DNA of 63,887 bases, the filler included, from Reclinomonas americana ATCC 50394 (lineage: Eukaryota), in assembly GCA_048213135.1 (NCBI GenBank). It is 4 parts of 3 records of this genome, joined end to end, with 100 filler letters (N's around TTAATTAATTAA, not from the genome) between each part and the next. Parts side by side here need not be neighbours in the genome. Positions count along the whole stretch, not along the records: positions 37,089 to 61,827 come from PS015085.1; 3 more parts are not named here. One strand, given 5' to 3'. Position numbers and translations under genes: made by a program. This document shows, in pieces, positions 29,220-61,929 of this stretch. Position 1 is the stretch's first letter, and every line of letters starts with the position of its first letter. Below the pieces are notes generated by a model that was not told the DNA's origin, ran no database searches, and worked only from the letters and a program-made list of their open reading frames with translations.

Positions 29220-31770
29220 AGAGGAGAAGAGGGGTCCGTCATGCCACTCTGCTTCCCCAAGTTATATATGATCGCGGTACCTCTTGCTGCATTCGTTTCT
29301 TCTGGTGTTCGCATCACTCTATGATGGCATTCGGTCTCAGTCATGGTCTCTCTTACTCGTCCCTGACCATATGCCACTCCACTCATCAGTGCTGCCTCTT
29401 GTCGCATCCTCTTCCTCTTGCCCTCTCGTGTTTCACTCTCAGTCATGCTCCCTTGGGAGTTTTGCATTCTTTCAGTCATGCCTCTGGTGTTCGCGTCACT
29501 CTATCATGGCATTCGTTCTCAGTCATGTTCTCTCTTCCTCGTCCGTGGCCACATGGCACTCCTCTGTTCGTGGTGCCTCCTGCTGCATTCGTTGCCTCTG
29601 GTCATGACATCTGTTCTCACTCTTCCCTGGTCATTTGGCACTCCTCTCGGTGCCTCTTGCTGCATTCTCTTCTTACCTCTCTTCTGTCGCTCATGGCTTC
29701 CTCCATCACAGTGTTTCCCGTCATGCTCCCTTGGGGGTTTCTGCACTCCTGCTTTGTCACGTCTTTTGGATACCACTCTTCTCCTCGGTGCTGGCCGATG
29801 TGCATCTCGCTGCATCCTCTTGTCCTCTCATGGCTTCCTCTCATTTCATGCTCGTGGGGGTTTCTGCATTCCTGTCTTGTCGCTTCTTGTGCGTGCCACT
29901 CCTCTCGTCAGTGTTGCTCGTGGTGCCTCTTGTCGCACTCTCTTCCTCTTGCCCTCCCATGTTTGCTCTGCCATGCTTCGTTGGGTGTTTCTGCATTCTT
30001 TCACTCCTTCATTATCATGCCACTCTTCCTCCACTGTTCGCGTTACTTGATAATGGTATCTGTTCTTTCTCTTGTTCTCTTCCTCGTCCGTGGCCACATG
30101 GCACCCCTCCGATCGTTGTCTTGCCCTTCACGGCTTCCTCCGTCACGCGTTCTCCGTCACGCTCCCTTGGGGCTTCTGCATTCCTTCAGCATACTGCCAC
30201 TCTTCTACGCCGGTTATGTTGGGCTGGCTTCGTTTCCTCTACTTCTCTCACGGTATTCATGCTGCTCCTCCTTGTTTGTGGCTTGTGTTGCTTGCCATTC
30301 TGCTTCCCAATCCTGTTCTGCGTTGCTCTGCGCATTTTCATCCTGCATTCTTCATGTCTTGCTTCGTTGGTCCAACACCTCTTCCGTTTCTTCTCAGCCT
30401 TCTTCTGCTGGCATGATCATGCCCTCTCCAGATCTCTCTGTTTCTCCTCACTCCCCCACCCTCCCCCTTTCAGGTGGCGGCCTCTGCTACACCCCCAGCG
30501 ACTGCGCCGATCGCGTGAAGAGCGACCTCGGCTCCTCGACACACTGGAAAGACTCGCGACACGAAGGCAACCTGCTCTCCGACGACCCCTCCAAGAACCC
30601 CGACTTCTACCAATGGAATCACGTCTTTGTGCCATGTTCGTGCGCTCTGTCCCTCTCTCCCCTCTCCCCCCTCGCCTCACTCAATGGTGGTTGTTGTCGG
30701 CAGACTGCAGCGGCGACCTGCACTCGGGCCAGCGCCGCATTGTCGCCTTTCCACCGTTCCAGGACTTTTACTTTGCCGGCCACCTCATCTTGAGTGCCAC
30801 GCTGAAGCACCTGCGAGACTATGGGATCAGTGGTGCCGAGGAACTCATTCTCAGTGGCTTCTCAGCTGGCGGCATCGGCACGTTCACCAACGCCGAGTTT
30901 GTCGGGCAGCAGTTCCCGGAGGCGCGATACTCGATTGTGCCAATGGGTGGCTTCTTCCTGGACATTACGCCGTTCAACCCCATGGACGCTTCGATTGGCG
31001 TGTGGCTCTCGGCGGCTGCTGGTGAGTGAGGAGTTGTACTGGGGGTCGGTGGACGATTTGTTTGACTCGTTTCGCGTGCGCACAGCGCTGTATGACGCGT
31101 ACTTGCCGCCGTCGTGTGTGGAACAGAATGCCAATTGTTGCGTGCGGCTTGCTGGTCTCTGTTGCGTGCACGCACCACCTCTTCTTGACTCCTTTCCGCA
31201 CCAGTCACTGGCCGCTGCTACTGCTCCAACTGGTTGTATCCGTACATCAATGTGCCGACGTTTGTGGCGGAGAATCAGGTGGGCCTGGCAGAGAGTCAGG
31301 GTCTCTCTGTGCATGTGTCTGTCTGTCTGCCTGCTTGTATCTCCTCCTTTCACTCTCTGGTCTCCGTCTTCCTCTGAGCGTTTCTGGCAGTTGTGTGCGC
31401 TTCTCTTTCTCAGTTTCCTCTCCCCCATCCCTAAGCGTCTTTCTGTTCGCCTCACGATCGCGGGCCGTTGCTTTCAAATTGTAGACGGGGCTGCCACGTT
31501 GCCTGTGTGTCTGTCTCTGTCAGTCTCTCTCACACTTTCTCTCCTCTCTCGCCTTTCTTGCCCATTTCTCTCCATTTCTGTCAGACTGTGCCTTCGTGTT
31601 TCTGCCCTTCTTGCCTTCCTGCACCTGCCTGCTTGCCAAAGCGTCTCCCTTTCTTTCTATTTCTAGCGCTCCTTCTAGATATGTCGCCCTTGCTCCTCCC
31701 CGCCTCACGCCTTTCTTCCTTTCTCTTTCAGCCTATCTTCGTTTGCTTTGCCCTCGTTTCTGCATGCTCG

Positions 31771-36902: not shown

Positions 36903-37088
36903 CTCTCTCTCTCTACTCTCGCTCTACTACTACGTACTACCTACTCTACCTCTCCTACTCTCTCTACTCTCGGTACTCGTACGACGACNNNNNNNNNNNN
37001 NNNNNNNNNNNNNNNNNNNNNNNNNNNNNNNNTTAATTAATTAANNNNNNNNNNNNNNNNNNNNNNNNNNNNNNNNNNNNNNNNNNNN

Positions 37089-43926: not shown

Positions 43927-45771
43927 ATGAAGGAGGGTCTCTTTGGTTGCTTCTCGGACTGCGGTACGTGCTGGCCCGCTGTATGTGTGTGTGTGGGCAG
44001 AGAACGAGAGAAAGAGAGAGAAAGGAGTGGAGAAACTTTTTGTGGGGGCGAAATGTCAACCGCCGCTTGTGAGAAAACGCCCCGCTCTTTGCAGTTTGCC
44101 TCTCTCTTTTCTTTGTTTATGTGCGTGTGTGTGTGCGGGTATTACGTGTGCGTACTGTTATCTGCAGCTCTTCCACCTACATAATGTGTGTATCTTGTGT
44201 GCATTCTGCGTGAGAAAGATGACTGTTTGGCAACTGTTTGTTTATTTGTTTGTGTCATGGTCATTGTCGACGAGCGCATTCGTCATGTTGTTGTTCATGA
44301 GGGCAAGAGCTCGAGTGCATTATGCTTTTTTCCGCATGTGAGATTGAGATGCAGATATTCGGTCACACTCACACACTCACTCATTCTGTGACTAAATGTG
44401 CGCAGGCATCTGCCTCTGCTCCACCTGCTGGTGCGCCGCATTTGTTTGCTTTTGTTTGTTTTTCCCAATCTCGAACATGTTACCTCATGCGTTGTGTACA
44501 TTTGGATTTTTCCCGCCCCCAGCTACCCGTGCCAGCTCGGCCGCAACGACTACGGTGGGACATGCATTGCGAGGAGGCAGAAAGCTGACACTCGCACGCG
44601 CAGAGAAAGAGAGAGTGTGAGAGAGAGAGCGAGACAGGGAGACGAGGGAAACCGGAGGCTTTTGTAGTGGGCTGGTGATCGAGCAGAGAGAGAGATGTAT
44701 GGGTATCTGGTGGGAGGCGGACAACATGAGAAAGAGAGTGCGCGTGTGAGCCTTTTGCTTACTTGACGTGTCTCCTTCCTCCACCGCCGCAGGTGTGAGC
44801 CAGCTGCAGGCTGGCCAGAAGGTCACCTATGGCGAGGGCATGATGGGCCTGCCTTGCATCCTCTGTGAGTTTCTCCATCCCGCTGCTCTGCTCACACACT
44901 AGTGTCTCACTCACTGTTCTCCACACTCACAGCCTGCTGCTGCACGCCGGTTGCGTCTGTCGTTGATGCGATGTTTCTTTTCCCAATGTTGAATGCTGAC
45001 CGTGCGCTGTTTACTTTGGTGACATTGTCGTCGTTGTCGTCGGACAGTACGTTGCGTTACCTCGCTCTCTCGGGATTCGTCGCCTGGATTGTGTGCTGAC
45101 TGTTGTGTTGTGACGCGTGTAGGCGTTCTACCTGACGTGCTGCAAGCACCCGCAGGCGGTGCGCGTGGCTCTGAAGGAGGAGCCCGGCTCATGCGTTGGC
45201 GATTGTCTCGTCGGTGTGTGGGAAGAAGAGAAGGGGGAAGGGGGACAAGGAGGGAGAAGTGATGTCGGTTTAGCTCCCTGCTCTGGTGCCTTGCTTTCCG
45301 TCTCAGTGTGTTGATCGTGTCGCGTGTACGTCGTCGGCGAAGAGATTCAGCTCTGTGTCTGTCTCTCAGACTGCTTGTTCCATTGTGGGTTTTGCCCATT
45401 CACCTCCTCCGCTTCTCGTGTCTTGTTGTCTCTCCCCTCTGTGCTGTTTGCATGGTTGCTCGTGTCGGTAACCTTCGCCTCCTTGTGTCTCTCTCCTGCT
45501 CTCTCGTCTCTCGCTTGACTGCGCATGTAGGCATATGGTCCGTGGGTTTCAGTCTGTTCTCTCTTTCTCTCTCTTCCTCTATCGGGCTGCGTGTGTTCCT
45601 TGTGATGATCCTTCTCCGTTTTGTGGATTCTATGTCTCGCTGTCCACTCACACTCTCAAGATGCTTGTGTTTTTTTTCGCTGGAGTTCTAACTCTCTTGT
45701 GCCGTCTCGTTCTCTGTCTCTCAGACTGCTTGTGTTGGTGTGCCCTCTCCTCCTCTTCCTTCTCTCTCTCC

Positions 45772-45849
<78 letters not shown>

Positions 45850-45935
45850 CTCTCTCTTCGTCTCGTCGTCGTCGTCGTCGTCGTCGTCTCGTACCGTCTC
45901 GTACGTCGTACGTNNNNNNNNNNNNNNNNNNNNTC

Positions 45936-45999
<64 letters not shown>

Positions 46000-46055
46000 A
46001 CTACTACTACTACTCTCTCTGTGTGTTTCTTTTCTCTCTCTCTCTCTCTCTCCTC

Positions 46056-46109
<54 letters not shown>

Positions 46110-46244
46110 CTCTCCCTTCTACTCTATCCCTCACCCCCATTCCCCACAGGCTGGCTGTGCTTCTGCTGCCGCAACGCCCAGATTGGCCGCGAGCTCAAGC
46201 TGCACGCCCCCTCGGCCACCCAGACTGGCATGACGGGCCATTAA
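43927..46244 (+). CDS. PLAC8-family Cys-rich protein, tandem copy 1 (8 small exons incl. a putative 3-nt exon)
   Basis: Spliced: MKEGLFGCFSDCGICLCSTCCYPCQLGRNDY...LPCILSCCCTP(Y)AFYLTCCKHPQAVRVALKEEPGSCVGDCLVGWLCFCCRNAQIGRELKLH. TAA 46242-46244. Confidence 0.92.
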
Positions 46245-46647
46245 AAAGCGCCCCCTGTTTGTGTCGACTCCAGCCACAGTGCACGTGTGCTGCTGCTGCT
46301 GCTGTCAACCCTCCACTCCCTTTACTCTTGACCCCCTCTACGGGCACTCCTCTCCCAACACCCAACCTTTTTTTCCCCCATACCTCAACTATATAAAGTG
46401 TGGATGTGTGCGCCGACGTACCCGAGCAGAGTGTGTGTGTCCCCGATCCTATTGCGCATGCACCCTGCTGTTTGGTACCGTTACTGTGTCACGGCGGACA
46501 AAGGCGACACAAGAGAATGAAAGTGGCTCGACGGGAGCACAAGGAGAAAGTGGTGGATCGCGAGGAGGGCGGGAAAGGGTGAAAGTGCGTGGCCACGAGC
46601 ACGGAGGCGGACAATACAGCATCTCTCGTCGTTGAGCGAGGAAAAGA

Positions 46648-47843
46648 ATGAAGGAGGAGCTTTTTGGTTGTTTCTCGGATTGCGGTGCGTGCTGTTCGCG
46701 GCATTGATGAGTGGTATGAAGAGGGACGAGAGGAAACGCGTGCTGCTCGTGTCTTGCGTGTGTGCGCCCAGCGCGGGGAATGTCACCGCCACACTTTTTG
46801 AAAAAACGCAGCACACTTTTGTGTGGCTTCGTGTCACTCGCAGCGGTACACCCAGTGCCTTTGTTGTATATGAGTGCCTCTTTCGCGATGGGGACGGAGG
46901 AGAGATGCACAGATTCAGTGACTGCGTGCTCATACGTTGTCTGCGACAGGTGGCTGCCTGTGCTCCACGTTCTGGTTTGTTTTTCGTGTCTGCAACACTC
47001 CCATCTACAACGATCTGCGCAGGAAATGCTGATGATTTTGTTCGCCCATTTTTTCGCGCCATTTAGCTTTGCCTGCCAGGCGGGCCGCAATGACTTTGGT
47101 GAGTGGCGCATGAACATGCGTGTACAACAAGGGAGCGCACGGCAGCTTACTACTTTTTGTTCCCGCGCGGTAGCCATGGAGGAGCTGCAAGCTGGCCGTG
47201 GCAAGGACACTGAGTACGGCCAGGGCATGATCGGCATTCCCTGCTTCCTCTGTGAGTTTGATTGCGTCCTCGCTTGCATCACACATGCGAAGCAGTGTCC
47301 TTACTTCCTACGACCCTCACAGCTTGGTGCTGCACACCGGTTGCGTTGATATATTTCCGACTGATATCGATTGTATTTCTTCGCGGCTGTTCTCTGACTG
47401 TGGCGTTCTTGCTGGCGTTACTATCTTCCGACAGTTCGTTGCGTGACAACTGCGAAGCTTGCAGCTGGATTTGCGCAACACGTGCATGGGTGTACATGTA
47501 TATGTGCTGACACCGCCCCTGTTTTGTGGTTTCACGATCAGTTCTACTACCTGATTTGCTGCAAGCATCCGAAGGCCATCCGCGAGATTATGAAGGAGGA
47601 GCCCGGTACATGCATGGGCGACTTCCTCGTCGGTTCGTTGCTAGCTGAGAGTGTGCAGAGAAGCATCATTTGGGTTCTCTGCATTTCCTTCCTATTTTTC
47701 TCTCTTTTTTTATGCAAGCGTGTAATTCACTGACCACTCATGCACATGTAGGCTGCTTCTGCTGCTGCTGCCGCAATGCCCAGATTGGCCGCGAGCTCAA
47801 GATGCACGCTCCCTTGAAACAACGCACCGGCATGGGCCACTAA
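46648..47843 (+). CDS. PLAC8-family Cys-rich protein, tandem copy 2
   Basis: MKEELFGCFSDCGGCLCSTFCFACQAGRNDF...WCCTP(F)FYYLICCKHPKAIREIMKEEPGTCMGDFLVGCFCCCCRNAQIGRELKMH. Same intron positions as copy 1. Confidence 0.92.
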
Positions 47844-48052
47844 ATGAGCCACGCACGGTAGTTTCTGTCTGCGAGTGCACGAGGTGTCAGATGTCGCTCA
47901 AAACGGCATCACTGCGCTTGTCCACTCCACCGCACCTCCCTTTCAACTCTTGACTATTTTGCGCCACTTTCCGTTCTCTCGTATCAAAAACATGAAAATG
48001 GAATATGTGTGCAATCCTCCACTGCTTGTGTGGTGTCTCCTCCTTCATCAAA

Positions 48053-48122
48053 GGGCACTTAGCTTAATGGCGGAGCACCTGCACCTGGCGGGAGGTCGTC
48101 GGTTCGAGTCCGGCAGTGTCCT
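48053..48122 (+). tRNA. tRNA-like gene/pseudo-tRNA (Ala-like acceptor G3:U70, aberrant 5-nt anticodon loop)
   Basis: Acceptor GGGCACT/AGTGTCC; D arm GCTT-AATGGCG-GAGC; anticodon arm CCTGC-ACCTG-GCGGG; variable loop AGGTC; T arm GTCGG-TTCGAGT-CCGGC. A and B boxes are intact. Confidence 0.75.
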
Positions 48123-48129
48123 TGCATAT

Positions 48130-48323: not shown

Positions 48324-53111
<4,788 letters not shown>

Positions 53112-61827: not shown

Positions 61828-61929
61828 NNNNNNNNNNNNNNNNNNNNNNNNNNNNNNNNNNNNNNNNNNNNTTAATTAATTAANNNNNNNNNNNNNNNNN
61901 NNNNNNNNNNNNNNNNNNNNNNNNNNNAA

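Follow-up and report, generated by a model that had tools for sequence, protein, structure and literature searches.

We looked at a stretch of DNA of Reclinomonas americana ATCC 50394 (GenBank assembly GCA_048213135.1), hereafter the window, which spans 63,887 nucleotides (nt) with its filler letters and contains many short GT-AG introns, CT microsatellites, and anoctamin, D123, and pectinacetylesterase-like genes. Two same-strand tandem copies of a small gene encoding a cysteine-rich (Cys-rich) protein are found between 43.9 and 47.9 kb. In both copies, the sequence separating exons 5 and 6 holds a short conserved island, in which an acceptor AG and a GTTGCGT donor motif enclose a single codon, and this codon is probably a microexon of 3 nt.

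The tandem Cys-rich genes and their products

Gene models were built on the sequence alone, from GT-AG sites combined with conserved open segments and the reading frame. Each copy was modelled as seven exons, or eight if the candidate microexon is counted, and all introns are of the GT-AG type. On the plus strand, copy 1 (43927-46244) consists of exons 43927-43963, 44406-44430, 44523-44554, 44793-44864, 44933-44949, the candidate 45048-45050, 45123-45213, and 46150-46244, and copy 2 (46648-47843) consists of exons 46648-46684, 46950-46974, 47067-47098, 47174-47251, 47323-47339, the candidate 47435-47437, 47542-47632, and 47752-47843. The candidate left aside, the exons measure 37, 25, 32, 72 (copy 1) or 78 (copy 2), 17, 91, and 95 or 92 nt. 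The product of copy 1 is 123 amino acids long with the candidate and 122 without it, that of copy 2 is 124 or 123 amino acids long, and the frame is intact both ways. Exon 5 (plus strand, 44933-44949 in copy 1 and 47323-47339 in copy 2) is itself only 17 nt long. It is obligatory, because exons 1 to 4 sum to 166 nt in copy 1 (phase 1) or 172 nt in copy 2, and phase 0 has to be restored for the conserved exon 6. Both genes have G|GTTGCGT as the donor of exon 5.

The two copies share 83 of 122 amino acids, 286 of 364 nucleotides of exon DNA, and 29 of 40 four-fold sites (72%). Other short introns are 68-119 nt long in both genes, which also have longer ones of 238-442 nt; in the anoctamin gene, introns of 64 and 67 nt are found. 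Only these two copies of the gene are present in the window. A possible third paralogue near 62.3 kb was rejected, as it amounted to a weak tblastn match with unconvincing translations. In copy 1, the last intron measures at least 936 nt, is interrupted by a gap of 20 N at 45914-45933, and is filled between 45720 and 46110 with CT and GTC/ACT microsatellites; its counterpart in copy 2 measures 119 nt.

An earlier note on this DNA had labelled the pair as PLAC8 (PF04749) paralogues. The general architecture fits this label, since both products (123 and 124 amino acids, with 18 and 17 Cys) have two Cys-rich regions around a hydrophobic segment, but the strict plant motif C[CL]XXXXCPC is absent and a Pfam search with six single-exon translations (23-30 amino acids) gave no family at E-values up to 10. 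A form longer by one residue is present instead, CLXXXXCXPC in copy 1 and CLXXXXCXAC in copy 2. Animal PLAC8 has this longer form, and it is presumably to animal PLAC8 that the gene pair is to be likened. Over 19 residues, hydropathy reaches a maximum of 1.45 in copy 1 and 1.54 in copy 2, in a stretch that spans the position of the candidate microexon; for the membrane segment that had been proposed there, this maximum is what we found and nothing beyond it. In one paper, PLAC8 proteins are described as small, with two Cys-rich regions and a hydrophobic segment between them, and CC/CLXXXXCPC is given as the motif of plant PCR/FW2.2 proteins (PMC12467093).

Homologues were looked for with exons 6 and 7. 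A query for exon 6 within a read-through open reading frame (region 1-40, longer proteins) returned one candidate and none was scored, and the corresponding query for exon 7 returned no candidate. When a profile of both exon-6 translations was compared with 1.84 billion representatives, two matches were obtained at E-values up to 0.001. These proteins, of 5655 and 262 amino acids, were not taken as relatives, as they cover profile positions 8-22 and 3-14 only. Two metagenome loci were likewise set aside: their intron-free coding stretches match 13-20 residues only and were treated as chance. A search of the Atlas for homologues gave no usable match. The best relatives of the anoctamin of the window are 60% (an MMETSP transcript) and 58% (Hanusia phi) identical, which indicates that no close relative of the organism is present among the proteins searched.

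A conserved island between exons 5 and 6

Between exons 5 and 6, copy 1 contains GACAG followed by TAC (45048-45050) and GTTGCGT (45051-45057), and copy 2 contains GACAG followed by TTC (47435-47437) and GTTGCGT (47438-47444). These strings and positions are exactly those reported in the earlier note. Either codon, Tyr in copy 1 and Phe in copy 2, lies on the plus strand with phase 0 on both sides. The spacing from AG to donor is exactly 3 nt in both copies, and the sole change within it swaps Tyr for Phe. The codon would divide the apparent intron into two half-introns, 5a (44950-45047, 98 nt, in copy 1 and 47340-47434, 95 nt, in copy 2) and 5b (45051-45122, 72 nt, and 47438-47541, 104 nt), all on the plus strand. 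The surrounding island extends over 45037-45060 in copy 1, with its acceptor AG at 45046-45047, and over 47424-47447 in copy 2. In addition to the acceptor and GTTGCGT, it carries a second donor-like site that overlaps the acceptor AG and shares its G, GTACGT at 45047-45052 in copy 1 and GTTCGT at 47434-47439 in copy 2 (together GTWCGT).

In a MAFFT alignment, the islands of the two copies are identical at 20 of 24 positions (83%), and the portion that precedes the codon, a pyrimidine-rich run and the AG, at 9 of 11. Over aligned columns, identity is 82% in exon 5 and 76% in exon 6, compared with 38% in the interior of intron 4, 46% in that of 5a, and 37% in that of 5b, so that intron interiors overall range from 36 to 46% and exons from 76 to 82%. 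Once stripped of the donor heptamer and of the final 3 nt, 5a of copy 1 is no more similar to 5a of copy 2 than shuffled sequences are (score 13, null mean 15.1, p ~0.87), and likewise the 5b pair does not rise above shuffles (p ~0.08). The intron interiors are thus essentially randomised, as had been claimed for the sequence around the codon. When the two whole introns were compared, the best ungapped 24-mer reached 20 of 24 matches (null mean 15.6, maximum 19), a value attained by none of 300 dinucleotide shuffles. No other internal block in the six paralogous intron pairs is as strong as the island.

Could such an island have no function, being either a remnant of common ancestry left by chance or a short patch of gene conversion between the tandem copies? 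The copies are only moderately diverged, as their four-fold sites show; one other internal block exists, in intron 1 near the branch region (17 of 21 positions, p ~0.013); and AG-NNN-GT occurs nine times in the 12 introns of the two genes. However, only the island pair has this arrangement at a homologous position, the shuffles never reproduced its 20 of 24 matches, and the remaining intron interiors stand at the level of shuffles. The bases that are conserved are those of an acceptor and of a donor 8-mer validated elsewhere in the window (see below). Against a recent conversion patch, 4 of the 24 positions are mismatched and the adjoining exons are no more alike than the island. We therefore consider a non-functional island decidedly improbable. 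A second conserved block proposed in intron 1 (44052-44080 against 46779-46809) was not significant (score 27, null maximum 32) and was not retained.

We also considered a tandem duplication of an intron as the origin of the arrangement. This is unsupported, as 5a does not resemble 5b of the same copy (p 0.42 and 0.997). The candidate codon of copy 2 recurs as the opening codon of exon 6, as might be expected after such a duplication, although a single coincidence of this kind is a weak sign. Intron 2 (44460-44469) and half-intron 5a (44978-44987) of copy 1 have TTTTCCCAAT in common; the local alignment scores 30 (null maximum 26, 0 of 300 shuffles), and TTTTCCCAAT is lacking in copy 2.

Splice signals and the probable use of the island

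The heptamer GTTGCGT occurs 27 times in the window, including at 11480. For the whole window, 8.0 occurrences are expected from shuffles, none of 100 shuffles reaching 27, and a second-order Markov model predicts 9.1. Exon 5 ends at this donor in both copies, the frame leaving no alternative. Moreover, two introns of the anoctamin gene, 10807-10870 (64 nt) and 12486-12552 (67 nt), begin with C|GTTGCGT, the same 8-mer as at the candidate microexon. When these introns are removed, the translations align in one piece across each junction with the homologues P0007 and P0008. C|GTTGCGT is therefore a working donor type in this genome. Over the window, GTTGCGT sites mostly follow T or C and not G, and they differ from the usual GTRAGT at positions +3 to +5; the heptamer may be read by U1 in a bulged or shifted register. 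A literature search on the heptamer, whose coverage did not extend to subscription journals, found no description of such a donor class.

The other signals needed for two introns are also present. In both copies, the candidate acceptor consists of a pyrimidine-rich run ending in GACAG, an ending that also serves intron 1 of copy 2. Scored with a matrix made of 12 sites, the candidate acceptors fall among the 12 real ones and stand at the 84th and 93rd percentile of 189 decoy AGs. The branch-like CTGAC that the earlier note had placed in each half-intron is found without mismatch in all four, at 44996-45000 and 45096-45100 in copy 1 and at 47394-47398 and 47507-47511 in copy 2. Its A lies 23-48 nt from the intron end, the shortest distance being that of 5b of copy 1, which ends in TGTAG; 5b of copy 2 ends in GATCAG. 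With 72-104 nt, the half-introns are comparable in length with the short introns elsewhere in the window (64-119 nt). Half-intron 5a is free of AG apart from its terminal AG in both copies, a situation found in 2.3% (copy 1) and 3.7% (copy 2) of mononucleotide shuffles. The AG of the island is therefore the first one after the donor of exon 5, and any branch point within 5a leads to it.

Altogether, these observations suggest that the island is a constitutive or alternative microexon of 3 nt, a reading to which we give a probability of roughly 60% from the sequence. The apparent single intron would then be two ordinary short spliceosomal introns (98 and 72 nt in copy 1, 95 and 104 nt in copy 2) around an exon of one codon, which would place an additional aromatic residue in the Cys-rich stretch where the protein is most hydrophobic. 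Under intron definition, each intron would be recognised alone, by means of a GTTGCGT donor, a CTGAC branch site, and the nearest AG further downstream. With no more than 3 nt between the acceptor AG and the donor that follows, simultaneous commitment to both introns is impossible and the two introns would have to be removed sequentially. We infer that removal of 5b first would be the safe order, because the overlapping GTWCGT site is thereby destroyed. The arrangement would be older than the duplication that gave rise to both copies. As judged from the gene models, the spliceosome of this organism already handles tiny exons, the 17-nt exon 5 and also exons of 25, 32, and 37 nt.

Several points weigh against this reading. 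Inclusion of the codon is not forced: exon 5 joined directly to exon 6 gives a product of 122 or 123 amino acids that is no less plausible as a protein, and for the 3-nt exon that the earlier note had proposed, the conserved acceptor and donor, the validated donor type, the branch motifs, the typical intron sizes, and the preserved frame all hold, but skipping the codon leaves the frame just as intact. Each CTGAC taken alone is weak, arising in 12-33% of dinucleotide shuffles per half-intron. The conservation comes from one duplication and two sequences, and with 29 of 40 four-fold sites still identical, this duplication is not ancient. In a small donor matrix made of the 12 undisputed donors of both genes, the inner GTTGCGT sites come only to the 37th and 61st percentile of 311 decoy GTs. 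By this matrix, GTACGT reaches the 92nd and GTTCGT the 96th percentile, so that the island can also be read as a different donor. Finally, removal of 5a before 5b would join the final G of exon 5 to the codon and recreate GTACGT or GTTCGT across the junction, and use of this recreated donor would delete one base and lead to a stop after 64 or 66 residues, a hazard for any such exon. The low scores of the inner donors are explained mainly by the training set, in which 10 of the 12 sites carry G at -1 and the GTGAGT and GTGCGT types predominate; left out of the training, the GTTGCGT donors of exon 5 rank at the 84th and 87th percentile. We give more weight to the validation by spliced alignment in the anoctamin gene than to this small matrix.

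Some of these points would fit a single intron of 173 or 202 nt, in which the island would be a conserved non-exonic element and the main messenger RNA (mRNA) would lack the codon. The element could be, for example, a U1-binding or decoy site (GTWCGT, GTTGCGT, or both) tuning the 17-nt exon 5, or it could yield a minor unproductive isoform. Absence of the codon does not disturb the frame, the matrix favours GTWCGT over the GTTGCGT that overlaps it, and a GTWCGT donor would tolerate the variable base at +3 as well as a Tyr/Phe codon does. Introns of 173 and 202 nt are unremarkable beside those of 238-442 nt in the same genes, and the recreated donor would place early stops at matching positions in both copies, as regulated unproductive splicing would. 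However, a role as donor only would leave unexplained the conserved pyrimidine-rich run with its AG, as well as the AG-free 5a of both copies and the CTGAC within it. A donor that follows no AG lacks an exon to terminate, and its use with 5a retained shifts the frame in both copies. We thus regard a non-exonic element as possible but rather unlikely.

With 5a retained as coding sequence, the donor of the island could also be an alternative distal donor of exon 5, joined to exon 6 and giving a different C-terminal half. The frame of exon 5 is indeed open through 5a, for 76 codons in copy 1 and 82 in copy 2, the lengths of 5a differ by exactly 3 nt between the copies, and when 45047 or 47434 serves as the donor, no stop interrupts the shifted frame in exons 6 and 7, which gives at least 173 residues. 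From 45051 or 47438, in contrast, the shifted frame ends after 98 or 99 residues. The peptides encoded by 5a are unlike except at the island, the low A content of 5a (11-12 A in 85-88 nt) is enough to keep these frames open, and it is the standard frame that is conserved in exons 6 and 7. Such a distal donor is very improbable.

Recursive splicing, by which one intron would be removed in two steps and the mRNA left without trace, was the other possibility raised in the earlier note. It is known from very long introns, and its sites are juxtaposed AG|GT. An acceptor and a donor do lie close together inside the intron here, but the AG precedes TAC or TTC and not GT, the in-frame donor is 3 nt further in so that the codon stays, the only regenerated GT takes the last G of exon 5 at the cost of the frame, with the early stops described above, and the introns are tiny. 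Trace-free recursive splicing is not possible in this arrangement, because any use of the inner sites keeps the codon or breaks the frame, and we see hardly any chance that the island is a recursive site. When both inner sites are used, Tyr or Phe is added; once the inner acceptor has been used, the sole productive continuation predicted from the sequence is the one that keeps the codon.

The microexon reading could be extended, and this extension is doubtful, by seeing the island as a three-way switch made of the acceptor AG, GTWCGT, and GTTGCGT, in which the order of intron removal would pick among three products. These might be, if such a switch operated, which we think unlikely, the protein with the aromatic residue, the protein without it, or a truncation after 64 or 66 residues. 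The extra residue would then perhaps shift the register of the downstream cysteines by one within the hydrophobic segment, a speculative effect. It would amount, with the same small likelihood, to regulated single-codon alternative splicing that pre-dates the duplication, in a unicellular host using intron definition without the microexon machinery of animals.

Surroundings of the genes and comparison with known microexons

The scan for similar exons suggested in the earlier note was run within the window. The pattern AGNNNGTTGCG has seven matches, for 2.68 expected (1 of 100 shuffles reaches seven), but only two of them are islands. The match at 48960-48970 on the minus strand is, by eye, the 3' end of the intron before a peptidase-like exon and not a microexon, and those at 431, 35789, 35861, and 59712 lie inside long open frames. 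The peptidase-like exon (minus strand, about 48800-48965) begins just after an intron ending in GTTGCGTAG and encodes, as read by eye, a GGSHGG-type stretch; it looks like part of a serine peptidase of the prolyl-oligopeptidase kind. At 31137-31167, downstream of the pectinacetylesterase-like open frame, two copies of GTTGCGTG are found 24 nt apart, which may be tandem alternative donors. On the plus strand (48052-48123), some 200 nt beyond the end of copy 2, a gene for tRNA-Arg (CCT) is present. It was the sole match of an Rfam scan of the whole window, and no known RNA was thus found in the introns. At 15851-15950, 36989-37088, and 61828-61927, the 12-mer TTAATTAATTAA stands between two runs of 44 N. 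Together, they look like an artificial all-frame stop linker joining contigs, and adjacency across these joins may be unreal. Both copies of the Cys-rich gene sit between two such joins.

Microexons of 3 nt are described in animals, with micro-Ex8 of Drosophila homothorax (PMC7392893), an exon of cytohesin-1 (PMC6314551), and the three-base exon of MAP4K5 (PMC8632122) as examples. The candidate resembles them in being one in-frame codon between two introns that would add one residue, in being conserved, and in being easily missed by aligners and gene finders. In contrast, the animal exons are proven by RNA, mostly alternative and regulated, and flanked by long introns, whereas the candidate is read from a protist-like genome, with introns of 72-104 nt and the unusual GTTGCGT donor. 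For plants, one study describes coding microexons of 1-15 nt that are missed by annotation, those of APC11 and VPS55 being only 1 nt long, and reports that paralogues or isoforms with and without a microexon coexist (PMC8831610). The splice sites of these plant exons, and their donor hexamers above all, are well conserved, a conservation of splice sites that the candidate shares. It differs from them in that the plant exons have support from RNA sequencing and reverse transcription polymerase chain reaction and are needed for the frame or the N-terminus, whereas the candidate is dispensable for the frame. As for recursive splice sites, it has in common with them an acceptor and a donor close together within an intron, but 3 nt lie in between and no clean donor is regenerated. 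The candidate stands out by its protist-like host, the adjoining 17-nt exon, and the overlapping signals of its island.

Microexons of 1-3 nt being already documented in plants and animals, the result is a modest and local one either way. If the inner sites are unused, the island would be a clear example of a conserved cluster of intronic splice signals beside a 17-nt exon. If the microexon is real, it would be among the shortest possible in-frame exons, in a lineage not represented among the proteins searched, and it would mean that exon size has no practical lower limit under intron-definition splicing. The pair would then provide a clean natural test case for the ordered removal of introns whose sites lie 3 nt apart, and gene finders would be systematically losing such codons in intron-rich protists.

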